From a virus, in UHGV virus genome UHGV-0122784: a stretch of DNA of 37,810 nucleotides; one strand, given 5' to 3'. This document shows positions 1 to 37,760 of this stretch, one piece after another. Numbering within the stretch: position 1 is the stretch's first letter; each line of letters opens with the position of its first letter. The notes under the pieces were generated by a model. It made no database searches and was not told the DNA's origin. It was given only the letters and a program-made list of their open reading frames with translations. The position numbers and the translations under genes are program-made.

Positions 1-43
1 CCTTACCCAGACCTGGACGTGAAGGTGATTGCAATACGTTCAT
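1..43 (-). CDS. 5' end (first ~14 codons) of the next gene of the host ABC-transporter operon (permease, ydcU-like), partial at window edge
   Basis: Minus-strand ATG at 43-41 preceded by an AGGAGAGG-type SD, immediately after the stop of the ATPase gene; only 14 codons are visible. Confidence 0.4.
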   Translation of the reverse strand, partial: MNVLQSPSRPGLGK

Positions 44-49
44 CGCCAT

Positions 50-1063
50 TCACCTCTCCTCAACCAGCGCCACCATCACATCACGCGACCAGGAAACCAT
101 CACCTGTTGTCCGGGCGTGAGCGTGGCAGGCAGTTCTTCGCCTGTCATATTGGCCTGACTCACCAGCAGTTTTTCACCGCCGCTCAGTGTCAGTTCAAAA
201 CGAGTTGCCGCGCCCTGATACTGCACCGCCTGGATCGTGCCATTAGCCTGCATTTCGCCAGGGGTGTTGAGGCGGATATGTTCCGGTCGTAGTGCGAAGC
301 TTCCCGTCATGCCACAAAGTTTCTCTGCCATCAGTCCATCAAAAACATTCGATGTCCCAACGAATCCCGCAACAAACGGCGTGCGCGGGCGCATATAGAG
401 ATCACGCGGGGAATCGACCTGTTCAATGCGTCCATTATTGAAAACCGCCACCCGATCGGACATCGATAACGCTTCGCCCTGATCGTGGGTAACGAAGATA
501 AAAGTGATACCGAGAGACTGTTGCAGCTTTTTCAGCTCAAGCTGCATTTGCTCTCGCAATTTGAGATCCAGCGCGCCGAGCGGTTCATCCAGCAACAACA
601 CACGCGGTTCGTTCACCAGTGCTCTGGCGATGGCAACCCGCTGGCGCTGACCACCAGAAAGTTGTGACGGTTTACGTTGCTGTACAAACCCCAACGCCAC
701 TTTCTCAAGCGCCTCTTGCGCCATTGCATGCCGCTGCTTTTTATTCACGCCTTTGACCATCAGCCCGTAGGCTACGTTGTCAAGAATCGACATATGCGGA
801 AATAGCGCGTAGTCCTGGAAGACAGTATTCACGTCCCGCTCCCACGGTGGCAGATTGCTGGCGGGCGTACCAAAAATAGAGATAGCCCCGCCGGAAAGCT
901 GTTCGAATCCAGCAATCAGGCGCAGGCAAGTGGTTTTGCCGGAGCCGGACGGCCCCAGCATAGAGAAGAACTCACCATCTTTTATCGCAATACTGACGCC
1001 ATCTACTGCGCGCACGTCACCGTACAACCGTGAGACGTTGTCAAACTCCACTGCGTACGTCAT
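50..1063 (-). CDS. ydcT: ABC transporter ATP-binding protein, PotA/PotG family (polyamine-type importer ATPase)
   Basis: 337-aa ORF with Walker A GPSGSGKTT, ABC signature LSGGQRQRV, Walker B LLLDEP and a C-terminal TOBE-like domain; the sequence matches my recollection of E. coli YdcT. Confidence 0.85.
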   Translation of the reverse strand: MTYAVEFDNVSRLYGDVRAVDGVSIAIKDGEFFSMLGPSGSGKTTCLRLIAGFEQLSGGAISIFGTPASNLPPWERDVNTVFQDYALFPHMSILDNVAYGLMVKGVNKKQRHAMAQEALEKVALGFVQQRKPSQLSGGQRQRVAIARALVNEPRVLLLDEPLGALDLKLREQMQLELKKLQQSLGITFIFVTHDQGEALSMSDRVAVFNNGRIEQVDSPRDLYMRPRTPFVAGFVGTSNVFDGLMAEKLCGMTGSFALRPEHIRLNTPGEMQANGTIQAVQYQGAATRFELTLSGGEKLLVSQANMTGEELPATLTPGQQVMVSWSRDVMVALVEER

Positions 1064-1080
1064 AAAACACCCCAGCGAAG

Positions 1081-1315
1081 TTAGCGACCGCCCATAATGG
1101 CAATGTAATCCTGCGTCCAGCGACTGTAGGGAACAAACTTGCCCCCTTCTGCTATAGGCGTTTTCCAGAAGGCGATTTTATCGAAATAGTTAAAACCGTT
1201 TGTTTCACAACCTTTCTCGCCTAATAACGGACTGGCTTTACACCCTTGCGGCACTACTGGTAACGAGCCAAACCAGGCCGCCACATCGCCCTGCACTTTT
1301 GGGGTTAATGACCAG
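1081..1315 (-). pseudogene. 3' remnant (~78 codons) of a periplasmic substrate-binding protein gene (ydcS-like), truncated by the prophage left end
   Basis: Minus-strand frame ending at 1081 (stop) runs uninterrupted up to the Mu left end at 1316; it sits immediately upstream of the ydcT-like gene as in a potD/potA-type operon. Confidence 0.55.
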
Positions 1316-1490
1316 TGTATTGATTCACTTGAAGTACGAAAAAAAACCGGGAGGACATTGGATTATTCGGGATCTGATGGGATTAGATTTGGTGGGGCTT
1401 GCAAGCCTGTAGCGCAAATTTTAGTCGTTAATCAATGAAACGCGAAAGATAGTAAAAAATTGCTTTTGTTTCATTGAAAATACGAAAAAC
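1316..1490 (+). repeat. attL with three transposase end-binding sites L1 (~1320-1342), L2 (~1425-1449), L3 (~1466-1490)
   Basis: Three copies of the ~22-bp MuA end-site motif (TTCAcTtGAAgtaCGAAA, AATCAATGAAACGCGAAAG, TTTCATTGAAAATACGAAAA) in the spacing known for Mu attL. Confidence 0.85.
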
Positions 1491-1654
1491 AAAAACACTG
1501 CAAATCATTTCAATAACAGCTTCAAAAAACGTTCAAAACCGATAACAACCAGGCTGTAACCAAATGACTCATATCACAAATCAGCTCATGCCGTTTAGGT
1601 ATGTTACATGTGTGATTATGTGAGGTGAAGTATGTTTTAGCTGGTTCATGGTTG

Positions 1655-2173
1655 TTATACGGCTTTTTTTACATCTTGTGGTTCTTGCGAAGGAGCTACA
1701 AGACCTTCCTGTTCATGAATACCATGCTCTGACAAAATCTCTTTGCGCTCTTCTGCTGGTAAAGTTTCTAGCATTTGGGCGAGTTGTATGCACTCACGCG
1801 ATACGCCGTGCAGAGATTGGATTTGAGTCTGATCAAAGATACTTGGCATTAGTGCACTAAGTCCACCTTTACTAAGTAGCTTTAATGCCCTCTGGATTTC
1901 CTCTGGTTCTAACTCTGCAACCAAAGCCATTAACACAGAAGCTAACTTATAAGCTGACTTATCGTTATCTAATAACTGCGCCCCTCCTAATTCTGCCTGA
2001 GTGGCATCAGGTAATGAGCTGATATGGTATTCATAAGCAACACCCTTTACTCCTTTGATCTGTCTCTTTTTCCATCCCTCATTAGTTGCTTTGCGGCTAA
2101 TACTACTTGCTGAAGACGGAAGACCAGCAACCCCTTGTAGCTCTTTAGCTGAAAACCATTCTTGTGTCATCAC
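1655..2173 (-). CDS. c: Immunity repressor c (D108-type, 172 aa), leftward transcribed
   Basis: Position and orientation of Mu c. N-terminal ~60 aa are homologous to the N-terminus of the transposase ORF (shared operator-binding domain); C-terminal part resembles the Mu repressor (LSKGGL..LMP, EILS.HGIHEQE..VPSQEPQ.VKKAV). Length is shorter than the 196-aa Mu Repc. Confidence 0.9.
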
Positions 2174-2361
2174 AAACCTCGCTTTAAATACACGATGTAT
2201 TCAAAGAAATGAAAAATATATTCACTTTAAAATCATCGAGATAGATGAATTTCAAACAAAACATTTGAATACACTATTGCATTGACAATGTATTCACACT
2301 AGCATTGCTGCATACCTTATCAGCTACCTTGCGGCGTAGCTGATGGCGTAGCTTGTGAGGA
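2174..2361. promoter_or_regulatory. Operator / divergent promoter region (Pc leftward, Pe rightward) = transpositional enhancer (IAS)
   Basis: Intergenic between divergent c and ner; contains three copies of TGTATTCA (2196-2203, 2289-2296, inverted at 2267-2274) and the Ner operator dyad; corresponds to Mu coordinates ~0.86-1.05 kb where O1-O3 lie. Confidence 0.75.
2319..2344. promoter_or_regulatory. Putative Ner operator: perfect 9-bp inverted repeat ATCAGCTAC-N8-GTAGCTGAT
   Basis: Dyad directly upstream of the ner start; GGCGTAGCT is also repeated directly at 2331-2339 and 2345-2353. Confidence 0.6.
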
Positions 2362-2370
2362 TTGCATTTT

Positions 2371-2589
2371 ATGGCGATAAAGAAAAGTAAATGTGAAGAC
2401 AAAAGTAGATACGACATTGTTGCTGATCTGCGCAAAAGAGGAAAAAGCCTAGCAGCTCTTGGTCGTGAGAACGGTCTCTCTATCTCTACGGTAAAAAATG
2501 CCTTGGATAAACCTTACCCTCGGGGGGAAAGAATCATTGCCGATGCATTGGGAGTTGAGCCACGAGACATCTGGCCTTCGAGGTATTGA
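2371..2589 (+). CDS. ner: Ner-family early transcriptional regulator (D108-type), ~72 aa
   Basis: Small HTH protein ending ...IWPSRY, as in Mu/D108 Ner; GAGG SD before ATG 2371 (the ORF track starts at an upstream TTG at 2362). Confidence 0.85.
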
Positions 2590-2591
2590 AA

Positions 2592-4592
2592 ATGCAACCA
2601 CAATGTAATGATTGGTTTTCTGCAAAGAAATTAGAAGGGCTGATAGGTCTTCCAAAATCCTCTAGCGCGATCTCTCGTAAAGCAAGGTTAGAACAGTGGG
2701 TGTTTCGACAGATACACGGGGTAAGAGGAGTAGCCTATGAGTTTCATATCTCATCTTTACCAAAGGAAACGCAAGCTGCGTTGTTGCTTAGACAAGGAGA
2801 GATCGAAACAAGCCAGGGCCGTTTTGAAATCGCCCGCCCCACGCTGGAAGCCCATGATTATGATCGTGAGGCACTGTGGAGCAAATGGGATAACGCCAGC
2901 GATTCCCAGCGCAGACTTGTTGAAAAATGGTTGCCTGCGGTTCAGGCCGCAGACGAAATGCTGAACCAGGGGATTTCAACAAAAACGGCTTTTGCGACCG
3001 TTGCAGGGCATTACCAGGTCAGCGCATCCACTTTGCGGGACAAGTATTACCAGGTACAGAAGTTTGCGAAGCCTGACTGGGCGGCTGCGCTTGTTGATGG
3101 ACGTGGTGCATCCCGTCGCAACGTTCACAAAAGTGAATTTGACGAGGATGCCTGGCAGTTTCTGATTGCAGATTATCTGCGACCGGAAAAGCCCGCCTTC
3201 CGCAAATGTTATGAGCGTCTGGAACTGGCAGCCCGCGAGCATGGCTGGAGTATTCCCTCCCGTGCCACGGCCTTTCGCCGGATTCAGCAACTGGACGAGG
3301 CAATGGTTGTTGCCTGTCGTGAAGGTGAACATGCACTGATGCATCTGATACCGGCACAGCAGCGAACTGTGGAACACCTGGACGCCATGCAGTGGATCAA
3401 CGGCGACGGTTATCTGCATAACGTCTTTGTACGCTGGTTTAACGGTGATGTGATCCGCCCGAAAACATGGTTCTGGCAGGATGTGAAAACCCGAAAAATT
3501 CTGGGCTGGCGCTGCGATGTAAGCGAGAACATCGACTCAATTCGCCTCTCGTTTATGGATGTGGTGACACGCTACGGCATCCCGGAGGATTTTCACATCA
3601 CCATTGATAACACCCGTGGTGCAGCGAATAAATGGCTGACGGGGGGCGCGCCCAATCGTTACCGCTTTAAGGTAAAAGAGGACGATCCAAAGGGACTGTT
3701 TTTACTGATGGGCGCGAAAATGCACTGGACAAGCGTTGTTGCCGGTAAAGGCTGGGGCCAGGCAAAACCTGTTGAACGTGCTTTCGGTGTTGGTGGGCTT
3801 GAGGAATACGTTGATAAGCATCCGGCACTGGCTGGCGCATATACGGGGCCAAATCCGCAGGCAAAACCTGATAACTATGGCGACCGCGCTGTTGATGCAG
3901 AGCTGTTTCTGAAAACCCTTGCCGAAGGTGTGGCGATGTTCAATGCCAGAACAGGCCGTGAAACAGAAATGTGCGGAGGCAAACTTTCGTTTGATGACGT
4001 TTTTGAGCGTGAATACGCCAGAACGATTGTGCGTAAGCCTACCGAAGAGCAAAAACGGATGCTGTTACTGCCTGCCGAGGCGGTGAACGTTTCACGTAAA
4101 GGCGAGTTCGCGCTTAAAGTTGGCGGCTCCCTTAAAGGTGCGAAAAACGTTTATTACAACATGGCGTTAATGAATGCCGGAGTGAAAAAAGTTGTGGTCA
4201 GATTTGATCCACAGCAGTTACACAGCACGGTTTATTGCTACACCCTGGACGGTCGGTTTATCTGTGAAGCGGAATGTCTGGCACCTGTTGCGTTTAATGA
4301 TGCTGCGGCAGGCCGTGAATATCGCCGCCGCCAGAAACAACTGAAATCTGCGACGAAAGCAGCGATTAAGGCACAAAAACAAATGGATGCACTGGAAGTG
4401 GCAGAGCTGCTGCCGCAGATAGCCGAACCTGAAGCACCAGAATCACGAATTGTCGGCATTTTCCGGCCTTCCGGTAATACGGAACGGGTGAAGAATCAGG
4501 AGCGTGATGATGAATACGAAACTGAGCGTGATGAATATCTGAATCATTCGCTTGATATTCTGGAACAGAACAGACGTAAAAAAGCCATTTAA
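2592..4592 (+). CDS. A: DDE transposase A (MuA); N-terminal enhancer/operator-binding domain is D108-type
   Basis: From ~residue 65 ([13 protein letters not shown]...) to the C-terminus the protein matches MuA as I recall it; the first ~65 aa differ from Mu and parallel the c repressor N-terminus. Confidence 0.95.
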
Positions 4593-4630
4593 TTAACGTT
4601 TAAACAAAATTTAATTACGAGGTTATTCAG

Positions 4631-5569
4631 ATGAATATTTCCGATATTCGCGCAGGACTGCGCACGCTTGTAGAAAATGAAGAAACCACCTTTAAACAAA
4701 TTGCTCTTGAGAGCGGACTTTCTACCGGAACTATCAGTAGTTTTATCAATGATAAGTACAACGGGGATAACGAGCGTGTTTCACAAATGCTGCAACGCTG
4801 GCTGGAAAAATATCATGCAGTTGCAGAACTACCTGAACCGCCCCGCTTTGTGGAAACGCAGACGGTAAAACAAATCTGGACAAGTATGCGTTTTGCCAGC
4901 CTGACTGAAAGTATTGCTGTTGTATGTGGCAATCCTGGTGTGGGCAAAACCGAAGCGGCCCGTGAATATCGCCGCACCAATAACAATGTCTGGATGATCA
5001 CCATTACGCCATCCTGTGCCAGCGTTCTGGAATGTCTTACTGAACTGGCGTTTGAGCTGGGAATGAATGACGCACCACGCCGTAAAGGGCCGCTCTCCCG
5101 CGCCCTGCGACGTCGCCTTGAAGGTACACAGGGGCTGGTTATCATCGACGAAGCTGATCATCTTGGTGCCGAAGTTCTGGAAGAACTCCGCCTGTTACAG
5201 GAATCAACCCGCACTGGCCTTGTGCTGATGGGAAATCACCGGGTTTATTCAAATATGACGGGGGGTAACAGAACGGTTGAATTTGCCCGTCTGTTTTCCC
5301 GTATTGCAAAGCGCACTGCAATTAATAAAACCAAAAAAGCCGATGTAAAAGCTATTGCGGATGCCTGGCAGATTAACGGCGAAAATGAACTGGAGTTATT
5401 ACAGCAGATTGCGCAGAAACCAGGTGCGCTTCGCATTCTGAATCATTCACTTCGCCTTGCCGCCATGACGGCTCACGGTAAAGGTGAGCGTGTTAACGAA
5501 GATTATCTGCGTCAGGCTTTCCGTGAATTAGACCTGGACGTTGATATTTCAACGCTGCTGCGTAATTAA
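4631..5569 (+). CDS. B: Transposition target-capture ATPase B (MuB, AAA+)
   Basis: 312 aa, Walker A GNPGVGKT, Walker B VIIDEADH; immediately downstream of A. Confidence 0.95.
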   Translation: MNISDIRAGLRTLVENEETTFKQIALESGLSTGTISSFINDKYNGDNERVSQMLQRWLEKYHAVAELPEPPRFVETQTVKQIWTSMRFASLTESIAVVCGNPGVGKTEAAREYRRTNNNVWMITITPSCASVLECLTELAFELGMNDAPRRKGPLSRALRRRLEGTQGLVIIDEADHLGAEVLEELRLLQESTRTGLVLMGNHRVYSNMTGGNRTVEFARLFSRIAKRTAINKTKKADVKAIADAWQINGENELELLQQIAQKPGALRILNHSLRLAAMTAHGKGERVNEDYLRQAFRELDLDVDISTLLRN

Positions 5570-5584
5570 GAAGGAGAAGAAATT

Positions 5585-5812
5585 ATGATGGCCCGAAATA
5601 TAAAAATGGCAACGGATGCGCAGAACTGGTTACAGGCGCGCGGGAGTCATGTAAATGAATCATATCTCGGCGTGGCGCGCCCGATTCTTGAAATCACTTA
5701 CCCACCGGTGGAACTGGTAAATAACGCGGTCAGGATTATGGAGCATAAGTCCGGGGTGGCCCGTTCTGTATGGACGGCCCGTCTTAATGGTTGTCAGATA
5801 ATCTGGAGGTAG
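5585..5812 (+). CDS. kil: Small early protein at the position of Mu kil (host-killing/cell-division inhibition)
   Basis: First ORF after B with strong SD AAGGAGAAG; ~74 aa as for Mu Kil. The name is by synteny only. Confidence 0.6.
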
Positions 5813-5819
5813 CATTTAA

Positions 5820-6032
5820 ATGATGGTGATAAACATTCACGATAATCTGGGAATCAGTAAGTTAATCAACCTTGATAATATCAATGTAATGGAAACGACT
5901 GTTGAGGGCGGTGTTGCTTTTGAATTTGTTGGTGGTCACAGGCTGGTCGTTCATGTCGGCAACCATCATCACGCAGAAAATGTGCTTTGTGAACTTAACA
6001 AAATCACAAATGCAACGCCCGTTAATCAATAA
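5820..6032 (+). CDS. Early-region hypothetical protein (70 aa)
   Basis: GGAGG SD; tightly packed in the Pe operon. Confidence 0.6.
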   Translation: MMVINIHDNLGISKLINLDNINVMETTVEGGVAFEFVGGHRLVVHVGNHHHAENVLCELNKITNATPVNQ

Positions 6033-6043
6033 GGAGAAACAAA

Positions 6044-6307
6044 ATGGCAAAAGTAATTATTGAAATTAAAAATACAGTATATGGAATTAAAGGACGGAAT
6101 TTGCGCACCAGCATTGCGGTGGACGGTAGTGCGGAACTGGACGGTGATGAGGGTACACTTGCTGGCATGGTGGCGTTACTGGTGCTTAACAAAAGCCAGA
6201 AAATAATTAATGAGTCAGCTCATGAAGCCATTGAGATTTTGAAAAACGATGGTGTCATCACAGGTGGCAGTGTCACTGAAATGGCTGTTGAAAAAACATG
6301 TCACTGA
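6044..6307 (+). CDS. Early-region hypothetical protein (87 aa)
   Basis: AAGGAGAAA SD before the ATG; Mu semi-essential region. Confidence 0.65.
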   Translation: MAKVIIEIKNTVYGIKGRNLRTSIAVDGSAELDGDEGTLAGMVALLVLNKSQKIINESAHEAIEILKNDGVITGGSVTEMAVEKTCH

Positions 6308-6741
6308 AAGGAACGCTGACAATGAACGTCAAAATCCGAAATGAAATTCAGGCATTAATCCGCATTCAGGAACGCAATAACAACGGTGGTGAATTACGCG
6401 AGTTTATTTGCGCCCGGAAAGTTGATGGTTATGGTGAAAAAACTTACCTGATTGCTTTCGACCATTACAGCATCTGTGCGCGTTATTGCGGCGAAAGTAT
6501 ATCCCGCGCCATTGCATTTGGCGGTGCGTTCAACGTGGATTTATGGGAATACGTCATGGACCGGGAATACATCTGTGTATCAGACCCGAAAGCACGTGAA
6601 ACGTGGCAGCGTATCTGGCGCGATTACCGGTTAATGGCAAAAGGCTGGGCGCGCTGCTGTTATTCCTCGCTTGCCCTGAAAGCGGTTCAGTTATCGCTGC
6701 GACATATTCCGGCATCACTGCGCGAGCCTCTGCTGTACTGA
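6298..6741 (+). CDS. Early-region hypothetical protein (147 aa, Cys-rich); start may be the internal ATG at 6322
   Basis: ORF overlaps the preceding stop; coding by synteny. Confidence 0.6.
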   Translation: MSLKGTLTMNVKIRNEIQALIRIQERNNNGGELREFICARKVDGYGEKTYLIAFDHYSICARYCGESISRAIAFGGAFNVDLWEYVMDREYICVSDPKARETWQRIWRDYRLMAKGWARCCYSSLALKAVQLSLRHIPASLREPLLY

Positions 6742-7041
6742 ATGGTGGCTGACATGAAGTGTAATCGTAAGCACTGGTCACGCGAAGACCGGGAATTTAT
6801 TGAAGCCAACGTTGGAAAAATGACCGTTGAAGAAATGGCGGAAAAACTGAACGTCGCCACAACCGCCCTCCGGGCACATGCCAGAAGACACGGGATATCG
6901 TTGTGTGCATATCGAATCAGTGAACACGACAAATATTTATGTCGTGAACTTTATAAAGAAGGACTGGATATTCATGTCATTGCCCGAAAGATGGAATTAA
7001 GCAATCGAGCTGTATCCAGCATTGTATACAGCGGATATTAA
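6742..7041 (+). CDS. Early-region hypothetical protein (99 aa), possible HTH
   Basis: ORF abutting the previous stop; start may be ATG 6754. Confidence 0.55.
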   Translation: MVADMKCNRKHWSREDREFIEANVGKMTVEEMAEKLNVATTALRAHARRHGISLCAYRISEHDKYLCRELYKEGLDIHVIARKMELSNRAVSSIVYSGY

Positions 7042-7060
7042 TTAACAGGAGCTTTAATTT

Positions 7061-7585
7061 ATGGCTAAACCAGCAAAACGTATCAAAAGTGCTGCAGCGG
7101 CTTATGTGCCACAAAACCGCGATGCGGTGATTACCGATATTAAACGCATCGGGGATTTACAGCGCGAAGCATCACGTCTGGAAACGGAAATGAATGATGC
7201 CATCGCGGAAATTACGGAGAAATTTGCAGCCCGGATTGCACCGATTAAAACCGATATTGAAACCCTTTCAAAAGGCGTTCAGGGATGGTGTGAAGCGAAC
7301 CGCGACGAACTGACGAACGGCGGAAAAGTGAAGACGGCGAATCTTATCACCGGTGATGTATCGTGGCGGGTCCGTCCACCATCAGTAAGTATTCGTGGTA
7401 TGGATGCAGTGATGGAAACGCTGGAGCGCCTTGGCCTGCAACGCTTTATTCGCACGAAGCAGGAAATCAACAAGGAGGCGATTTTACTGGAACCAAAAGC
7501 CGTCGCAGGTGTTGCCGGAATTACGGTTAAATCGGGAATTGAAGATTTTTCCATTATTCCATTTGAACAGGAAGCCGGTATTTAA
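7061..7585 (+). CDS. gam: Host-nuclease inhibitor Gam (Ku-like DNA end-binding protein)
   Basis: 174-aa protein recognised as Mu Gam (MAKPAKRIKSAAAAYVPQNRDAVITDIKRIGDLQRE...); AGGAG SD. Confidence 0.9.
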   Translation: MAKPAKRIKSAAAAYVPQNRDAVITDIKRIGDLQREASRLETEMNDAIAEITEKFAARIAPIKTDIETLSKGVQGWCEANRDELTNGGKVKTANLITGDVSWRVRPPSVSIRGMDAVMETLERLGLQRFIRTKQEINKEAILLEPKAVAGVAGITVKSGIEDFSIIPFEQEAGI

Positions 7586-7683
7586 TACCACCATTAATAT
7601 TTAATTAATTCACATTCTTTTAATTATGGCGCGATGCGTCAGGGGATTGCTCGCGCCTGAAACAGATTACTGAGGAATAAAAC

Positions 7684-8214
7684 ATGGTTGATGCAAAAAT
7701 TCTGAATGGTGTCAGCACATTATTACGGGCTTACGGACGCCTGACCTGCGGAGTTCTGGCTGAAAAAATGAAGATGCCTCCCTCATCAATGGTGTATTTC
7801 CTGCGTGATGCGGTTGATGCCGGCGTTCTCACCGAATGCAACGGATTTTATGACGTTCCGCGCCCACGTCCGACGCCGCCTGTAAGACGAAGCGCAACTG
7901 AACAGCCTGCTGTTGATGATGCGGTGTGGTGCAACTGGCGTCGCTCATTACCCTGGGTGGAAGGTAATACCATCCCCGCACTGGCAAAAGAGTTTGCGAC
8001 GGGCGTGCTGACCTGTGAGTCAGTCCACATTGTTGCTGAGGTGGATAACAGAATGTGCGAACAGGGAATGCCCCGTTTTGTGATGGCTTATATCGATATC
8101 CGGCTGGGGCGGTTTATTTGCAGTTCAAGCGCCTGGAATATCACCGACCATGTACTGCGTTATCTCATTCTTGATTGTTCTCCGGCTCCCGTAGCGGTGC
8201 AGGAGGTGGCGTGA
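7684..8214 (+). CDS. Early-region hypothetical protein (176 aa)
   Basis: ORF with GAGGAATAAAAC upstream; stop overlaps the next start (GTGATG). Confidence 0.65.
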   Translation: MVDAKILNGVSTLLRAYGRLTCGVLAEKMKMPPSSMVYFLRDAVDAGVLTECNGFYDVPRPRPTPPVRRSATEQPAVDDAVWCNWRRSLPWVEGNTIPALAKEFATGVLTCESVHIVAEVDNRMCEQGMPRFVMAYIDIRLGRFICSSSAWNITDHVLRYLILDCSPAPVAVQEVA

Positions 8215-8744
8215 TGTTTTTTAAAACGTCAAATCCCGCAGCACTGCTGGCATGGGACCAGTTTATGGCGGACTGCCTGAAACTACGCGAAGAAGCCCGC
8301 CATCTTGATAAGGTTCTGGGTTGTGGTTGCCGGTCAGTATTCAGCACAGGTATTGGTGGGCGTCATTTTCATGGCGTGAATTTTCCGGCGAATGAGCGAC
8401 CTTTCTCGCCGGAGTTGTGGACTGTACAACGCTCCGCATCAGGTAACAGTTGCAGGCCAAGAACATCGCGCATTCCTGCACATCTGCGGGAGCAGTCAAA
8501 AGAGCTGGCGAAAATATGGCAGGAGAATATTCCGGTCACTTATGCCCGTACTGACGCTCTCTTACCCGCACTGGGACTGGATTTCAGCGCAACAATATTC
8601 GGCCCGCTCCGGTGGTTCCGTGTTGGTGATGTGATTTACGTCATGACAGGGATGACTCCCGCACAGGGCCGCATGACTGAAATCCTTTCTGACGAATTTA
8701 TCCGGGCGCAAAAACAGGCGGAGGTAAACAATGGAAAACAATGA
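8214..8744 (+). CDS. Early-region hypothetical protein (176 aa)
   Basis: ATG at 8214 preceded by GGAGGTGG; the ORF track's upstream extension from 8175 is rejected. Confidence 0.65.
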   Translation: MFFKTSNPAALLAWDQFMADCLKLREEARHLDKVLGCGCRSVFSTGIGGRHFHGVNFPANERPFSPELWTVQRSASGNSCRPRTSRIPAHLREQSKELAKIWQENIPVTYARTDALLPALGLDFSATIFGPLRWFRVGDVIYVMTGMTPAQGRMTEILSDEFIRAQKQAEVNNGKQ

Positions 8745-8913
8745 AACATCGTATTCGTGGCTGGGGAAATTTACCACGGTGAAACAGGAATGCCCGACCT
8801 GCGGTAATGAATCCCCTGAATATCTGAAAGAGTGCCCTCATTGTGGCGGGCAGAAATGCAACCACTGCGATATGGGCGATGACACGGCGTGCATGAATTG
8901 TGAAGGTGAATAA
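8731..8913 (+). CDS. Small Cys4 zinc-ribbon protein (60 aa)
   Basis: Four CxxC motifs (CPTC, CPHC, CNHC, CMNC); GGAGGT SD. Confidence 0.6.
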   Translation: MENNETSYSWLGKFTTVKQECPTCGNESPEYLKECPHCGGQKCNHCDMGDDTACMNCEGE

Positions 8914-8914
8914 T

Positions 8915-9205
8915 ATGAATAATGAAACTAAATTTACGCCTAAAGACCTGGATGAAGAACTGGTGAAAGCTAAGATGCTTGAGCGTATGCGCGATGTTAT
9001 TGAGACTGCAATCAGTAAAGGCTTTTCTGCGAGAGAGGCCCTTGAAATTATGACACGGGAAATTCATCTCATACGCGACGAAGTTTTGTTGCATAACAAA
9101 AAAGCCCACAACAATATTGTTTGTCGTGAGCTTGGCGTTGATGATTCAGCGGTTATTCCACAGCGTCAGTATCTGTGTGCTCTGATGAGAGGTTCCCGGC
9201 ATTAA
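8915..9205 (+). CDS. Early-region hypothetical protein (~96 aa)
   Basis: ATG 8915 with AAGGTGA SD (the ORF track starts at an upstream GTG at 8900); its 3' end overlaps the convergent minus-strand gene by ~50 bp. Confidence 0.55.
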   Translation: MNNETKFTPKDLDEELVKAKMLERMRDVIETAISKGFSAREALEIMTREIHLIRDEVLLHNKKAHNNIVCRELGVDDSAVIPQRQYLCALMRGSRH

Positions 9206-9512
9206 CAATATCCTGCCTTGAAGCCCAGAGCTTATTGAGCAGCAGATCAACATACTCATCGGCCTCAAAATCCAGTTCTTCGAACGTTTTTCGGTTCTTA
9301 TAGCTGGCCTGTGTATTTCTGATGATGTCATAAGCATCGTGCATGTTGATAACACCGTTTTCAATCAGCTTAATCATCAGATTACCGACCAGCATAAAAC
9401 CGGTTATACCAAAGAATTTATCCTGGTTATTAACAGGGGTGTCTTTCTGGTTTGTTTCGAAATCTGGGTTTTGTTCATCATCCGACACCGTATGTTGTTC
9501 TTGTTCAGCCAT
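9153..9512 (-). CDS. Acidic hypothetical protein (119 aa) encoded antisense to the early operon
   Basis: Minus-strand ORF with its own SD (AAGGAAA, 6-7 nt before the ATG at 9512-9510); fills a stretch (9206-9581) with no plus-strand ORF; locally AT-richer than flanking genes by eye. Confidence 0.6.
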   Translation of the reverse strand: MAEQEQHTVSDDEQNPDFETNQKDTPVNNQDKFFGITGFMLVGNLMIKLIENGVINMHDAYDIIRNTQASYKNRKTFEELDFEADEYVDLLLNKLWASRQDIVNAGNLSSEHTDTDAVE

Positions 9513-9581
9513 AATATTTCCTTTTATGTTATTACTGAATATGGCGGTGTTGCAGCACCGCCTCTTTCCGGAGGTACGATC

Positions 9582-10133
9582 ATGAGTCGCACATCCCTGA
9601 TTAAATTAATCCATGTCGCCCGTCGGGAGCTACAACTCGACGACGACACTTACCGCGCTTTTCTGATGCAGAAAACGGGCAAAATCAGTTGCCGCGAGCT
9701 TACGGTTACGCAACTGGAACAGGTGCTCGATGCCATGAAAGAACGCGGCTTTAAGAAGCTGAATAAATACCCCCGTCGCCGCTTTAAGGAACATGTCACA
9801 CCCCGCGAGAAGGTGTATAAAATCTGGCAGCAGATGGCAGAAGACGGTTTTATTACCGATGGCGGTGATGTGGCGCTGGATAAATATGTTCAGCGCCTGA
9901 CCGCGAAACGCAACGGCGGACAGGGTGTTTCCACGCTGGCGTGGTGTCACGGAGAATCGTTGCAGGTTGTGCTTGAAACCCTGAAACAGTGGCACATCCG
10001 CTGTATTCGTGAAGCCTTTTCCCGCCACGGGTTTCCGTTGCCGGTCAGTCCGTCCGGGCGTGAACTGCGCGGCTATGATGCCATGACGGCGGCTTATGCC
10101 CGTGCAAGAAAAACACGGAGACTGGCACAATGA
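9582..10133 (+). CDS. gemA: GemA (early protein affecting host gene expression/supercoiling)
   Basis: GGAGGT SD + ATG at 9582; the ORF directly precedes mor with an ATGA overlap. The ORF track's upstream extension from 9339 is hydrophobic junk. Confidence 0.8.
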   Translation: MSRTSLIKLIHVARRELQLDDDTYRAFLMQKTGKISCRELTVTQLEQVLDAMKERGFKKLNKYPRRRFKEHVTPREKVYKIWQQMAEDGFITDGGDVALDKYVQRLTAKRNGGQGVSTLAWCHGESLQVVLETLKQWHIRCIREAFSRHGFPLPVSPSGRELRGYDAMTAAYARARKTRRLAQ

Positions 10134-10519
10134 CGCAGGATTTGTTTGGTGACTTTCAGGATGACAGTATCCTGGCTCATCTTGACAATGAATCCGGGGA
10201 TACGTCACGATTTCCGGCACTGCTGGCGGAACTGAACGATGTGCTGCGTCAGGAACTGTCCCGGCTGGGCGTTGAACCGGCGCACTCTCTGGAGATTGTT
10301 GTGGCTATCTGTAAGCATCTGGGCGGCGGTCAGGTCTATATTCCTCGTGGGCAGGTGCTGGATTCACTGGTTCGGGATTTACGAATCTGGAATGATTTTA
10401 ACGGGCGCAATGTTCACGAACTGGCAATTCGTTATGGTGTGACGTTTAACACTGTCTATAAAGCCATCCGACGAATGCGGCGTATAAAATATCGTCAGTA
10501 TCAACCCCCTCTGTTTTAA
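10130..10519 (+). CDS. mor: Middle operon regulator Mor (activator of Pm)
   Basis: 129 aa, last gene before the early terminator; paralogous to C (shared YIP.G, FNGRN, C-terminal HTH). Confidence 0.9.
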   Translation: MTQDLFGDFQDDSILAHLDNESGDTSRFPALLAELNDVLRQELSRLGVEPAHSLEIVVAICKHLGGGQVYIPRGQVLDSLVRDLRIWNDFNGRNVHELAIRYGVTFNTVYKAIRRMRRIKYRQYQPPLF

Positions 10520-10524
10520 ACAGT

Positions 10525-10549
10525 AAAGCCGGTTAATCCGGCTTTTTTT
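10525..10549 (+). terminator. Rho-independent terminator ending the early transcript (Mu t9.2 equivalent)
   Basis: AAAGCCGG-ttaat-CCGGCTTT hairpin followed by a T-run, directly after the mor stop; about 9.2 kb from the Mu left end. Confidence 0.8.
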
Positions 10550-10601
10550 ACGCCCTCAATATTCTGTTGTGACGATAAAACGTTCATGACAGGAGGGCAA
10601 C
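10550..10601 (+). promoter_or_regulatory. Probable middle promoter Pm (Mor-dependent)
   Basis: Located between the early terminator and the first middle-operon ORF; exact Mor site and -10 element not identified by me. Confidence 0.4.
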
Positions 10602-11162
10602 ATGCCTGAGTTTTCCCCTGCATTCCTTCATTCGCTGAATTTCGTTATACGCCCTGATGTTGAAGGTGGCTATGTTAATGATCCTGCCGACCGTGGCGGC
10701 GAAACGAAATACGGTATTTCTGACCGTCGCGACGGTGTTATTGATGGCAAAACCGATGTTAACGGTGACGGAAAACCTGATACCCGCATTAAGGATTTAA
10801 CCCGCGAGCAGGCGGCGCAGATCTACTGGCGTGATTACTGGCTGGCGGCAAAGTGTAACGAATGGCCTGATGGCGTTTCCTTATTCGTTTTTGATGCTGC
10901 CGTTCAGCACGGTGTTAAACGCGCGATTCAGATCCTCCAGGCGGCAGCAGGTGTTGATGATGATGGCATCGTCGGTAAAAACACACGCGCAGCCGTTCTG
11001 CGTGCCGATACTGACTGGCTGCTGTTGCAGTGCTTCCTGCGTCGTTCCCGCTATTACGCAGGGATTATCAAATCCAGTACCTCGCAGGGGAAATATCTGA
11101 ATGGCTGGTTTAACCGTCTGGATCTGCTCGCCAGCGCCTGTCGGGAGGTTCTGCATGGGTAA
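10602..11162 (+). CDS. GH108-like muramidase with C-terminal peptidoglycan-binding domain (predicted)
   Basis: N-terminal motif VEGGYVNDPADRGGETKYGIS is typical of the glycoside hydrolase 108 family; AGGAGGG SD; first ORF of the middle operon. Confidence 0.6.
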   Translation: MPEFSPAFLHSLNFVIRPDVEGGYVNDPADRGGETKYGISDRRDGVIDGKTDVNGDGKPDTRIKDLTREQAAQIYWRDYWLAAKCNEWPDGVSLFVFDAAVQHGVKRAIQILQAAAGVDDDGIVGKNTRAAVLRADTDWLLLQCFLRRSRYYAGIIKSSTSQGKYLNGWFNRLDLLASACREVLHG

Positions 11163-11385
11163 AGGGTGGGATGCGTCCTTTCAGTTCGGCAGGCGTGAAC
11201 GTTTACGACAGGAGGTATTACATCGGGAGGCCGGAGGCCCGCCACCAAAGCCAATGGATTACACAGGGCACGATGGCACCCACGGAAGTTATTACATGAA
11301 AGGCTGGCAGTCCGTTGATATGCCAGAAATTATCCACCATTGCCGGCGCTACAGAGAAAAATACCATGTACAGAAAATTCAGTGA
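11155..11385 (+). CDS. Middle-operon hypothetical protein (~76 aa)
   Basis: ATG 11155 with GGGAGG SD, overlapping the preceding stop (CTGCATGGGTAA). Confidence 0.5.
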   Translation: MGKGWDASFQFGRRERLRQEVLHREAGGPPPKPMDYTGHDGTHGSYYMKGWQSVDMPEIIHHCRRYREKYHVQKIQ

Positions 11386-11497
11386 TGAATGTTTCGGGCC
11401 GTCCACGCTGATTAGTGCGATAAAAGTGATTGCCCTTGTGGTTCTGATAACCATCAGTGCCGTGGTGTATCTTTCTGTCTGTTAACCGGGGGAAAAT

Positions 11498-11920
11498 ATG
11501 CAGCATGATTTATTTGAACACGATCCGGCAATTCGCCAGTTAATCGGACATATTGATAACATTCCGGCCCCGGAACTGGAATCACGCTGGCCCCGTTCGG
11601 TGGTTGATCTGATTGATGTTCTGGAAAACGAACTGAAACGCCAGAACGTCAGCAATCCCCGTGAGCTTGCCCGTAAACAGGCCGTTGCCCTGTCCTGTTT
11701 TCTGGGCGGGCGGCAGTTTTACATCCCCTGCGGCGATACGATCCTGACCGCGTTACGCGACGATTTGCTTTACTGCCAGTTCAATGGTCGTAACATGGAA
11801 GAACTGCGTCGCCAGTATCGCCTGTCCCAGCCGCAGATCTACCAGATTATTGCCCGCCAGAGAAAGCTGCATACACGACGTCATCAGCCTGATCTGTTCT
11901 CACCTGAAAGCCAGAAATAA
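11498..11920 (+). CDS. C: Late transcription activator C
   Basis: 140 aa; recognised as Mu C; paralogue of Mor. Confidence 0.92.
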   Translation: MQHDLFEHDPAIRQLIGHIDNIPAPELESRWPRSVVDLIDVLENELKRQNVSNPRELARKQAVALSCFLGGRQFYIPCGDTILTALRDDLLYCQFNGRNMEELRRQYRLSQPQIYQIIARQRKLHTRRHQPDLFSPESQK

Positions 11921-11943
11921 CCGGCATCCTGCCGGTTATTTCC
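11919..11943 (+). terminator. Possible terminator of the middle transcript
   Basis: AACCGGCA-tcc-TGCCGGTT hairpin right after the C stop, followed by a weak T tract (ATTTCC). Confidence 0.4.
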
Positions 11944-12014
11944 TGTCACCATAATCCCGCACCTGCCATCTGATTTTTTAGACTGCCATCAGAGCATTTT
12001 TTCAGGGAAGCATG

Positions 12015-12530
12015 ATGGCGGGGATACCAAAAAAACTGAAAGCCGCACTGCTGGCGGCAACGATTGCCGGTGGCGGTGTGGGTGGTTATCAGGAAATGAC
12101 CCGTCAGTCTCTGATCCATCTGGAAAATATCGCTTATATGCCTTACCGCGATATTGCCGGTGTGCTTACGGTCTGTGTGGGACATACCGGGCCGGATATC
12201 GAAATGCGCCGTTACAGCCATGCGGAGTGTATGGCTCTTCTCGACAGTGATTTAAAACCGGTTTATGCGGCAATCGATCGTCTTGTCAGGGTGCCGCTGA
12301 CGCCATATCAGAAAACGGCGCTGGCAACGTTTATTTTCAACACCGGTGTTACCGCATTCAGTAAATCAACGCTGCTGAAAAAACTCAATGCCGGTGATTA
12401 CGCCGGAGCGCGTGACCAGATGGCCCGCTGGGTGTTTGCCGCAGGCCATAAATGGAAAGGACTGATGAACCGTCGCGAAGTGGAAATGGCTATCTGGAAT
12501 ATCAGGGGGGCGGATGACCTTCGCCAGTAA
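12015..12530 (+). CDS. lys: SAR endolysin Lys (lysozyme-type muramidase with N-terminal signal-anchor-release domain)
   Basis: N-terminus MAGIPKKLKAALLAATIAGGGVGGY (Lys-Lys at positions 6-7, then a weakly hydrophobic Gly/Ala-rich TMD); start taken as the second ATG. Confidence 0.9.
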   Translation: MAGIPKKLKAALLAATIAGGGVGGYQEMTRQSLIHLENIAYMPYRDIAGVLTVCVGHTGPDIEMRRYSHAECMALLDSDLKPVYAAIDRLVRVPLTPYQKTALATFIFNTGVTAFSKSTLLKKLNAGDYAGARDQMARWVFAAGHKWKGLMNRREVEMAIWNIRGADDLRQ

Positions 12531-12900
12531 AAGTTTACTTCTGGCAGCCGTGTTTGCCGCCGTTCTGTCCGGGGTGTTGTGGCACAGGCTGGACAGCACC
12601 CGCCACGATAACCAGACGCTGCGCCGTAAATTACAGACGGAGCAACAGGCCCGCCACACTGCTGAATGGTTGTTACACAGTCAGGAACAGACGATGCAGG
12701 TATTTTCCGCTATCCGTGCCGCAAATCGTGCCGCACGGCTGGCAGATGAGACAGAACATCATGATGCAAAAGAAAAAATTACAACCGCCATTACCGGTGA
12801 CAATTGCAGCACTCGTCCTGTGCCTGCCGTTGCTGCTGACAGGTTGCGGGAACTCGAAAAACGCACCCGTGCCATCGGTGGTGATCCTGCCCGAAACTGA
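12514..12900 (+). CDS. Inner-membrane spanin subunit (i-spanin, Rz-like)
   Basis: N-terminal TMD (SLLLAAVFAAVLSGVLW) followed by a charged coiled-coil-like periplasmic domain; directly after lys. Confidence 0.8.
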   Translation: MTFASKSLLLAAVFAAVLSGVLWHRLDSTRHDNQTLRRKLQTEQQARHTAEWLLHSQEQTMQVFSAIRAANRAARLADETEHHDAKEKITTAITGDNCSTRPVPAVAADRLRELEKRTRAIGGDPARN

Positions 12901-13102
12901 TGCAGAACTGACGGAAGCAACGCCCGTTCCGCCCATGCCACAGCCCCTGACGTGGGGAGCATCCCTGCTCTGGAATGCTGACCTGCTGATGGCGCTCGGG
13001 CAGTGCAACCGCGACAAGGCATCAGTCCGGGAACAGGAGACCCGGAGGAAAGAAATTTATGAACGAAGACCAGAACCGGGCGGTGGCGCTGCTGCTCGCT
13101 GA
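12761..13102 (+). CDS. Outer-membrane lipoprotein spanin subunit (o-spanin, Rz1-like), overlapping the i-spanin gene in the +1 frame
   Basis: Internal ATG-ATG start giving MMQKKKLQPPLPVTIAALVLCLPLLLTGC: lipoprotein signal with LLTGC lipobox, followed by a Pro-rich mature region. Confidence 0.7.
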   Translation: MMQKKKLQPPLPVTIAALVLCLPLLLTGCGNSKNAPVPSVVILPETDAELTEATPVPPMPQPLTWGASLLWNADLLMALGQCNRDKASVREQETRRKEIYERRPEPGGGAAAR

Positions 13103-36925: not shown

Positions 36926-37114
36926 ATGAAATCAATTCGCTGTAAAAACTGCAACAAACTGTTATTTAAGGCGGATTCCTTTGTTCACATTGAAATCAGG
37001 TGTCCGCGTTGCAAACGTCACATCATAATGCTGAATGCCTGCGAGCATCCCACGGAGAAACATTGTGGGAAAAGAGAAGAAATCACGCATTCTGACGAAA
37101 CCGTGCGTTATTGA
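36926..37114 (+). CDS. com: Com, zinc-finger translational activator of mom
   Basis: 62 aa with CxxC...CxxC (CKNC, CPRC); GGAGGTGAG SD; overlaps the mom start. Confidence 0.92.
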
Positions 37115-37760
37115 GTATGAAGGCCAGATTGTTGGCTATGGTTCAAAGGAGCTGCGCGTTGAAACCATATCCTGCTGGCTGGCCCGCACAATTATTCAGA
37201 CAAAGCACTATTCCCGCCGTTTTGTGAATAACTCTTACCTTCACCTGGGGGTATTCAGCGGACGCGATCTGGTTGGCGTTCTCCAGTGGGGATATGCCCT
37301 TAACCCCAACTCAGGTCGTCGTGTCGTGCTTGAAACGGATAACCGGGGCTATATGGAGTTGAACCGCATGTGGCTACACGACGACATGCCCCGCAACTCT
37401 GAATCACGGGCCATCAGCTACGCGCTGAAAGTTATCAGATTACTGTATCCGTCAGTGGAGTGGGTTCAGTCCTTTGCAGATGAACGCTGCGGACGCGCAG
37501 GCGTTGTGTATCAGGCGTCGAATTTTGATTTTATTGGCAGTCATGAAAGTACGTTCTACGAGCTGGATGGTGAGTGGTATCACGAGATAACGATGAACGC
37601 GATTAAGCGAGGTGGACAACGAGGCGTGTATTTACGGGCTAATAAAGAGCGTGCCGTGGTGCACAAATTTAATCAGTATCGCTACATCAGATTCCTGAAC
37701 AAACGAGCAAGGAAGCGGCTAAATACCAAACTATTCAAGGTTCAGCCATACCCTAAGTGA
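37035..37760 (+). CDS. mom: Mom DNA-modification (anti-restriction adenine modification) protein; the true start is probably the internal GTG at 37065
   Basis: ORF recognised as Mu Mom; GGAG lies 6-10 nt before GTG 37065, whereas ATG 37035 lacks an SD; the overlap with com fits Com-dependent translational control. Confidence 0.88.

Follow-up and report, generated by a model that had tools for sequence, protein, structure and literature searches.

The window described here is the whole of a 37,810-nucleotide (nt) stretch, virus genome UHGV-0122784, and it consists of a Mu-type transposable prophage that adjoins a host gene for an ABC-transporter ATPase. Mu is a textbook phage, and its semi-essential early region is usually drawn as one operon that runs rightward and whose genes are mostly unknown. 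In the early operon of the window, between gp14 and gemA, there is an open reading frame (ORF) that runs in the opposite direction. An initial annotation, made from the sequence alone, proposed that this ORF is a genuine leftward gene inside the rightward operon, and its conservation, its ribosome site and its terminator all agree with that proposal. We consider the leftward ORF to be, very probably, a real gene, and we assign it to an uncharacterised accessory gene family. The features at the locus are as follows.

9153 to 9512, minus strand: leftward protein-coding gene, 119 amino acids (aa), ATG start (ORF call, PHROG match, family and synteny)
9519 to 9523, minus strand: Shine-Dalgarno core AAGGA, six nt 5' of the ATG at 9512-9510 (sequence)
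9153 to 9205, both strands: 53 bp over which the leftward gene and gp14 converge and overlap at their 3' ends
9092 to 9133, minus strand: predicted intrinsic terminator, inside the gp14 coding sequence (terminator scan, RNA fold)
8915 to 9205, plus strand: gp14-like early gene, 96 aa, phrog_6075 (PHROG match, D108 annotation)
9543 to 9569, plus strand: hairpin GGCGGTG-N6-CACCGCC with a T-rich tail (conserved with compensatory changes, RNA fold)
9582 to 10133, plus strand: gemA, 183 aa, the divergent neighbour of the leftward gene (Pfam GemA, E 3e-31; D108 annotation)

The leftward gene between gp14 and gemA

The 119-codon ORF has the ribosome site that was first attributed to it; the longer match, AAGGAAA, is the complement of 9517-9523. 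The convergent overlap with the upstream plus-strand ORF, put at about 50 bp by eye, is 53 bp with gp14, and in related loci the 3'-end overlap with the gp14-like gene is likewise 50-70 bp. The start region, however, does not overlap the gemA ribosome-binding region, as had been thought. The start codons of the leftward gene and gemA are 69 bp apart in the window and the gemA ribosome site, GGAGG, is at 9570-9574; if anything of the leftward gene overlaps it, this can only be a promoter or leader farther upstream.

Around the leftward gene, the window shares 98.4% identity with phage D108 and 97% with Mu_3F6, and Mu, SfMu and the Yersinia vB_YpM phages match it in the flanks only. The manual annotation of D108 is blank for 376 bp at this place (window 9206-9581), between the end of gene 14 at 7905 and the start of gemA at 8282, and this is the sole sizeable unannotated stretch in the D108 early operon. 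To this extent the statement that no other stretch between B and mor lacks a plus-strand ORF was correct. A mechanical search, however, does place two plus-strand ORFs in the gap, 9339..10133 (GTG start, an in-frame extension of gemA) and 9343..9585 (80 aa), neither of which is conserved.

The leftward gene was also described as AT-richer than its neighbours. It is so when compared with gemA and mor (GC 0.50-0.60) and with gp11-12 (0.52), the values at the leftward gene being 0.40-0.43 (about 0.42). But gp14 is equally AT-rich (GC 0.40-0.45), and the AT-rich tract that takes in both genes spans about 8800-9500.

The gene is present in the databases. Its product is identical to WP_021526008.1, a hypothetical protein called by PGAP in E. 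coli JCKP02, and RAST annotates the ORF as a hypothetical protein in Mu_3F6. No mention of the protein accessions was found in the literature, and the papers on SfMu and the Yersinia phages contain no discussion of the leftward ORF.

A conserved family at one position

By itself, the length of the leftward ORF does not exceed what chance would give, as 39 ORFs of 100 aa or more lie on the minus strand of the window. Almost all of them shadow plus-strand genes. It is the conservation, the ribosome-binding site and the terminator that lift the ORF above chance.

The leftward protein matches phrog_38610 from end to end (E 8e-83) and also matches phrog_32893 (E 5e-7). Searches of 1.84 billion representatives with phmmer/HMMER returned a small family of proteins of 60-119 aa (E 1e-13 to 1e-5). 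The phmmer relatives are a handful of proteins of 60-91 aa with 38-53% identity; a match to P0003, a 606-aa sushi-repeat protein, was discarded as spurious. A profile search gave 16 clusters from Klebsiella, Raoultella, Citrobacter, Salmonella and E. coli, all of them annotated as hypothetical and 36-64% identical to the leftward protein, including one 119-aa form at 64%.

The arrangement is the same in every locus examined: a gp14-like gene, the leftward gene antisense to it and overlapping its 3' end, gemA, with 63-73 bp between the two start codons, and then mor or a Mor-family gene. Across the loci with the leftward gene, GemA is 42-100% identical to that of the window. All of the D108/Klebsiella-type loci listed have AAGGA or AAGGAG 5-8 nt 5' of the ATG; in Mu and SfMu the site reads AGAGGA. 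The nine tabulated family loci, and Mu as well, keep a minus frame that is open throughout. Locus L024 has a premature stop at codon 44 of the minus frame, and truncated or frameshifted copies are frequent among the database clusters, in Salmonella and elsewhere.

Between subfamilies the synonymous sites are saturated and the proteins are still 36-55% identical. The dN/dS values are 0.13-0.43, which alone cannot separate the minus frame from the wobble-coincident plus frame, because that frame mimics the signal by geometry. Therefore, dN/dS was dropped as a strand discriminator and we rely on the integrity of the frames. Across the loci the open length of the plus frames varies from 13 to 108 codons and none of them is consistently open. 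In both the window and the diverged relative closest to it, the plus frames are broken by 2-9 stops within the region, the wobble-coincident one by 2. The persistence of 36-64% protein identity with saturated synonymous sites, together with the retention of the ATG and the ribosome site, indicates that translation of the leftward ORF is selected.

One could still suppose that there is no gene here, only a chance open frame in an AT-rich spacer that automatic annotation has spread. The abundance of long minus-strand ORFs in the window would permit this, and so would the absence of a recognised promoter (see below) and the omission of the ORF from the manual D108 annotation. In addition, the exact segment is rare: it occurs in one of 5426 complete E. 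coli genomes, in three phage records and in two IMG/VR contigs. But homologues as little as 36-64% identical keep the frame, the ATG, the ribosome site, the position and the terminator in phages whose GemA is only 42-51% identical, the dN/dS range points the same way, and the terminator pairs are kept with compensatory changes. We regard a chance frame as very improbable.

The terminator of the leftward gene

The predicted terminator begins 19 nt past the leftward stop codon and has a 13-bp stem, 9133->9102, followed by TTTTTGTTAT; the region folds as RNA with z = -3.2. It is a prediction, so that the 3' end given here is not a mapped one. A hairpin with a T-run is found 17-50 nt past the stop in all ten loci compared, Mu included, and in Mu it coincides with the terminator annotated by TransTermHP at 7839..7873.

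The pairing is well supported by a nine-locus alignment, in which 92% of the cells of the stem are paired, versus 29-54% when the 3' arm is slid by 1-3 columns. Four pairs are altered on both sides, that is, in a compensatory manner. On the plus strand an A-run lies 5' of the hairpin and no T-run lies 3' of it; therefore, the terminator would serve only the leftward gene.

The counterpart in Mu and SfMu

It had been suggested that the locus be compared with the reference annotations of Mu and D108, and the comparison was rewarding. D108 is blank at this slot, as noted above, and Mu has an unlisted 88-aa homologue of the leftward gene, with a plus-strand gene, gp15, listed in its place. The two Mu features are these.

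Mu 7896 to 8162, minus strand: 88-aa leftward ORF of Mu (phrog_8747)
Mu AF083977 7960 to 8127 (3521-3688 of locus L002), plus strand: gp15 (Mup15/Mu_54), 55 aa (Mu reference)

SfMu carries the 88-aa leftward ORF too, annotated as SfMu_16. In both phages the ORF has the AGAGGA ribosome site and there are 69 bp between its start codon and that of gemA. PGAP calls the ORF in a Mu-identical prophage of E. coli W (WP_000431116.1), and a left-end record from the 1990s, M64097, lists it as 'putative F-134'.

The window segment is not alignable to Mu beyond the common flanks, and BLASTP of the 119-aa protein against the 88-aa protein shows no similarity. We nevertheless place the two in one superfamily, for three reasons. 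Both the D108-type and the Mu-type proteins match phrog_32893. Viral contigs that bear gemA supply a 79-aa intermediate and also members of the Mu type that have diverged to 52-54% identity. Finally, an hhalign comparison of the D108/Klebsiella types with the Mu types, the diverged members being added, gives a probability of 94.7% and E 6e-8, with window residues 29-69 matched to Mu residues 3-43, a two-helix core.

The Mu/SfMu ORF resembles the window gene in its slot, its orientation, its distance from gemA, its convergent overlap and its type of downstream terminator. In contrast, the Mu form does not have the 28-residue acidic N-terminal extension and its C-terminal half is different. The Mu type is the commoner of the two, with 27 of the 5426 complete E. 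coli genomes versus one for the D108 type of the window. Judged by sequence, then, the leftward protein belongs to a narrow superfamily that is confined to enterobacterial Mu-like phages (phrog_38610, phrog_32893 and phrog_8747), the members of which have in common the similarity of the core and the antisense position between a gp14-like gene and gemA.

The current Mu reference omits the 88-aa ORF, and the gp15 annotated there lies wholly antisense to it. Against PHROG, Mu gp15 gives nothing meaningful (E 0.027), whereas the 88-aa minus-strand ORF is matched end to end. The gp15 frame, which is the wobble-coincident one, stays open for 66-71 codons in the relatives that are 52-54% identical, and because of this dual coding in Mu is possible. 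Therefore, Mu gp15 may be spurious, or the Mu locus may be dual-coding. Neither D108 nor the window has a counterpart of gp15, as judged by annotation and by the interrupted plus frames.

These observations also bear on the suggestion that the region encodes a plus-strand protein through a frame that was missed at first, either an extended GemA (from the GTG at 9339), the 80-aa ORF at 9343-9585 or a counterpart of Mu gp15. The mechanical ORFs and the listing of gp15 in the equivalent place, with its frame open in relatives, could be cited for it, as could the longer GemA that is annotated in PhiR68_1. However, the plus frames are interrupted by stops in the window and its closest diverged relative, their open lengths vary widely between loci, and GemA homology and the GGAGG site begin at 9582 in all loci. 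It is also the minus-strand ORF, and not gp15, that PGAP picks in the Mu-identical prophage and that finds a full-length PHROG match. We give a plus-strand product hardly any credence.

The encoded protein

Two parts of the leftward protein can be told apart.

9429 to 9512, minus strand: acidic extension at the N terminus, residues 1-28, peculiar to the long form of the D108 type (alignments; pLDDT <50, predicted disordered)
9210 to 9428, minus strand: conserved helical core, residues 29-101 (AlphaFold2 with a family alignment)

The protein is acidic, as was noted at the outset, with a pI of 4.28 and 24 D+E versus 9 K+R. Acidity is not a family trait, however. The pI of the members ranges from 4.3 to 6.2, and in P0007 K+R equals D+E; the acidity of the window protein resides mainly in its N-terminal tail. 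When that extension is compared with the 64%-identical relative, the substitutions by codon position are 9/9/10, which indicates no constraint at the protein level.

The core helices predicted by AlphaFold2 are at residues 29-51, 57-73 and 84-97 (core pLDDT 65-81), and residues 29-69 are the part that is common to the window protein and the Mu-type 88-aa protein. The C-terminal tail, residues 103-119, is predicted to be disordered. The invariant residues are F39, L41, G43, N44, L49, E51, V54, I55, T67, A84, L91, L95 and W96, and FFGITGFMLVGNLMIK is an example peptide of the protein. Thus, the models predict a small and soluble protein that is mostly helix, with three helices in the core and with acidic tails that are disordered.

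The homology and structure searches that had been called for produced a family at the same slot, but no informative functional or fold match. Sequence-profile searches of Pfam, NCBIfam and the PDB with the leftward protein gave no match, and PADLOC-DB gave none either (E <= 1), whether for the window protein, the Mu type or two relatives. No segment is convincing as a transmembrane helix; the maximal 19-residue Kyte-Doolittle mean is 1.05-1.50 across the family, versus the usual 1.6, and the hydrophobic stretch holds conserved G, N, K and E residues. This low hydropathy does not suit a small membrane exclusion protein.

One resemblance deserves mention. The family stretch L-V-x-K-G-x-I-[TD]-x-x-[ED]-[AG], which is helix-turn-helix-like, is similar to the consensus of the SHOCT-like domain PF22746, and sub-threshold matches to PF22746 occur in three of 15 family members (best E 0.003). 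However, the best member scores 16 bits against a gathering cut-off of 27 and the window protein itself has no match. The SHOCT-like resemblance is a lead and not a classification.

A small acidic protein with D/E-rich tails brings to mind the DNA mimics, and one could imagine an early anti-defence protein that shields the incoming phage DNA in the manner of Ocr or ArdA. Such a role would suit a gene that is placed in the semi-essential early region and beside gam, a protector of DNA ends. Yet the gene is antisense to the only known early promoter and would therefore lie outside the early transcript; the family has not kept the acidity; and the acidic N-terminal tail, in which it mainly resides, is free of codon-position constraint. 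Moreover, none of the Pfam, NCBIfam, PADLOC, PDB and fold searches gave a match. A DNA mimic is quite unlikely.

The slot between gp14 and gemA

An alignment with D108, Mu, SfMu and vB_YpM_3 indicates that the window and D108 diverge from Mu between about codon 10 of gp14 and the hairpin before gemA. This mosaic module, at about 8945-9540, is AT-rich and consists of gp14 plus the leftward gene; the window gp14 is 38% identical to Mu gp14. The two genes vary together and independently of gemA. For example, in locus L010 GemA is 81% identical, versus 38% for gp14 and 36% for the leftward ORF. The exchange of gp14 and the leftward gene as one module is therefore a hint of a functional link between the convergent genes.

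The content of the slot was surveyed in 63 viral contigs with gemA. They have leftward genes of the D108, Mu, diverged Mu, P0007 or 79-aa types, an unrelated leftward ORF, or nothing. The unrelated ORF, of 134-138 aa (phrog_585, weak DUF2513), is present in 11 of the 63 contigs (L039, L040, L043, L045, L046, L052, L053, L055, L057, L064 and L075). It starts 30 nt from the gemA ATG on the opposite strand, and there the hairpin before gemA is absent. In all, 13 of the 63 contigs have a slot ORF without a family match, namely these 11 plus L067 and L073, in which there is only a 50-aa ORF at a distance of 144 nt from gemA. It seems that leftward cargo is preferred in the slot.

Among the Yersinia phages, vB_YpM_3 and vB_YpM_23 are viable with an empty slot. 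The gp14-like gene of vB_YpM_3 runs directly into the gemA leader and the last 20 leftward codons remain. This looks like a clean natural deletion (locus L006, about 1050-1160), apparently between short CTGAT/TGAT repeats, that affects neither the gemA hairpin nor the gp14-like gene. Plaques and lysogens are still formed by the vB_YpM phages. The slot is a position for cassettes, from which the leftward gene can disappear while the phage continues to form plaques and to lysogenise. That the slot is variable or empty in viable phages and that decayed copies are frequent mark the leftward gene as accessory. It is no recent insertion, however, because homologues hold the same slot in phages whose GemA is only 42-51% identical.

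Transcription and the hairpin before gemA

The leftward gene is antisense to the Pe transcript and would therefore need a promoter of its own, presumably in the leader or 5' region of gemA. A divergent promoter region between the leftward gene and gemA is plausible. Two by-eye candidates for the promoter, CATATT (past the hairpin) and TAACAT, were dropped because they are not conserved and have no -35 element. Sigma-70 consensus-like sites are strongly depleted in window positions 1-13000, with 5 versus 16.1 +/- 3.9 expected from shuffles.

The hairpin at 9543-9569 has the ribosome site of the leftward gene on one side and that of gemA on the other, and corresponds to Mu AF083977 8193-8220. 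It varies as GGCGGCT/AGCCGCC in L021 and as AGCGGTG/CACCGCT+TTTTT in PhiR68_1. Both PhiR68_1 and vB_YpM_3 keep the hairpin and do not have the leftward gene, so that it would be part of the leader of gemA or of the final stretch of the early operon. In form it resembles a terminator or attenuator for the plus strand, with which the early operon would close. The GenBank record of Mu, in turn, has a 'semi-early promoter' over the equivalent 67 bp, which includes the same bases as the hairpin, and the gem operon is reported to be constitutively expressed in lysogens, according to a citation in PMC3820752. The idea that the dyad at 9543-9562 is an operator for the leftward protein was dropped for two reasons, the acidity of the protein and the retention of the dyad by phages without the gene. 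Searches of the region for known RNA families returned sub-threshold noise only.

What the leftward unit may do

We favor the view that the leftward gene is an independent transcription unit within the early operon of Mu/D108-type phages and that its protein has an accessory, protein-binding role; we would put the probability of this at about 0.6. The gene would be transcribed from its own promoter, and with an own promoter its expression would be separate from the early lytic programme, most plausibly at low levels within the prophage. The protein most likely binds another protein and would be conditionally useful, for example in host modulation or phage exclusion. Convergent transcription, with about 100 nt of complementarity to the distal early mRNA, is probably a side effect, which could dampen read-through into gemA-mor.

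Several results weigh against this view. A search for sigma-70-like promoters with at least 8/12 matches found none within 300 nt 5' of the leftward gene in 10 loci, and a relaxed scan of 10 loci found nothing at a conserved position. However, a comparable scan also misses the known Pe and Pc promoters of Mu, and the negative is therefore a weak one. The literature searched gave no transcript, ribosome-profiling or proteomic data for the leftward gene, and no strand-specific transcriptome of a Mu or D108 lysogen that covers the leftward strand was found there. The ambiguity of dN/dS as to strand, described above, belongs here as well. The family is tiny and often decayed, and hence any selective benefit would be conditional. 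The AlphaFold2 models of the long and the short form have low confidence (pLDDT 60-62, pTM 0.37-0.40), and fold searches with the protein models returned nothing specific, which makes any mode of action guesswork. Any specific functional guess for the protein is doubtful.

The presence of a conserved unit in this position can also be read without much regard for the protein. The unit might act mainly in cis or as an RNA that gates read-through into gemA-mor and the switch to middle transcription, the peptide being secondary. Leftward transcription would then run against the far end of the Pe early transcript, and the RNA would pair with that end, in a manner similar to the action of lambda oop RNA on cII. 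In all loci the 50-70 bp overlap is kept and the terminator lies 17-50 nt deeper in gp14, which accounts for the complementarity of about 100 nt, and the place directly 5' of gemA-mor is invariant. The unrelated leftward ORF in the slot of other phages would fit as well, since the orientation is kept there and the protein is not. But the protein has been maintained at 36-64% identity with saturated synonymous sites, together with its ATG and ribosome site, and the phages with an empty slot are viable and lysogenise. A role mainly in cis is unlikely.

A further proposal is that the leftward unit is a lysogeny-phase safety device of Mu, D108 and their relatives. Convergent transcription from the gemA leader region in the repressed prophage, together with the antisense RNA, would block leaky Pe read-through into gemA-mor, and the SHOCT-like protein would bind GemA, gp14, Mor, or a partner from the host or an incoming phage, thereby stabilising lysogeny or excluding superinfection. 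As a whole this proposal is speculative and we think it improbable.

The remainder of the prophage

The gene order of the prophage is c repressor, A, B, gam, gp11 to gp14, gemA, mor, C and mom. Apart from gp14 and gemA, the positions of reference in the window are the following.

50 to 1063, minus strand: host ABC-transporter ATPase gene
1655 to 2173, minus strand: c repressor
10130 to 10519, plus strand: mor
11498 to 11920: C
37035 to 37760: mom

Between mor and C the window encodes a 186-aa protein with Glyco_hydro_108 (GH108) and PG_binding_3 domains (10602-11162, plus strand), whereas in Mu, D108 and E. coli JCKP02 gp18-gp20 fill this interval. The Salmonella-type loci L010-L014 have the GH108 arrangement of the window. 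A second lysozyme-size gene is 3' of C, at window 12012-12530.

In one subgroup there is a second antisense ORF, of 134-142 aa, that is convergent with gemA and occupies the position of mor in Mu (L026 3964-4386, L027 3964-4386, L008 4950-5378 and L009 4981-5385); it has no Pfam match. Another observation concerns L013, a Salmonella contig (738-5389) with a Mu-like remnant that keeps the early region and the leftward gene and has lost the late genes. The remnant adjoins SPI-1-type effector genes (SptP-like, SLT and a HilA-like regulator) and a mom gene.

Comparison with other systems and significance

Convergent antisense units are familiar from lambda, where the oop RNA is opposite cII, and from P22, where sar is opposite ant; both are non-coding RNAs with mapped promoters. 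The putative short leftward transcript is like them in overlapping the 3' end of a rightward gene and in having an intrinsic terminator inside that gene. It differs in that the leftward unit encodes a conserved protein and that its transcript is only predicted.

The initial annotation saw in the gene a moron-like insertion. A lambdoid moron is a lone ORF that brings a promoter and a terminator with it and is inserted where relatives have two neighbouring genes (PMC4378225). The leftward ORF fits this description in several ways: it lies between genes that are adjacent in vB_YpM_3, it has a predicted terminator of its own and it is dispensable. As accessory cargo in a variable slot it is thus moron-like. 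In composition it is AT-richer than gemA and mor, but the neighbouring gp14 is as AT-rich, and no promoter was recognised, in a scan that also misses Mu promoters. It departs from the description in that the compositionally odd, exchanged module also includes gp14, and that the gene is an old occupant of the slot with diverged alleles and no recent one-off insertion.

The transposable Pseudomonas phage Fc02 has opposite-strand genes, olg1 and olg2, that overlap gene 10 (PMC9936078). Some of its opposite-strand genes are expressed in the lysogen, as determined by strand-specific RNA sequencing, and confer superinfection exclusion (PMC9936078). Like the leftward gene, they belong to a phage with a Mu-like lifestyle and lie opposite the lytic early operon. 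However, the Fc02 genes are next to the repressor and ner, whereas the leftward gene is next to gemA, and expression and exclusion have been demonstrated in Fc02, whereas the leftward gene is known here from its sequence.

As a database entry, a hypothetical protein, the gene was already known, and accessory genes of the moron-like kind are familiar. What is new is that a leftward unit, conserved and equipped with a terminator of its own, has been recognised, and that homology links the prophages of the D108, Mu, SfMu, Klebsiella, Salmonella and Citrobacter types. This implies a correction of the reference annotations of Mu and D108, the D108 slot being blank and Mu gp15 doubtful. If the leftward gene encodes an ordinary dispensable accessory protein, then the gain would be limited to better annotation. 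If, on the other hand, the safety-device proposal were true, then it would be incomplete to picture Mu as transcribed rightward in all but the repressor gene and the invertible G segment.

In conclusion, the leftward gene is a candidate for a prophage-expressed or regulatory function in a place where lysogenic conversion by the gem operon has been reported, and the gp14/gemA junction is a hotspot for leftward cargo that should be useful to those who mine Mu-like prophages for accessory and defence genes.

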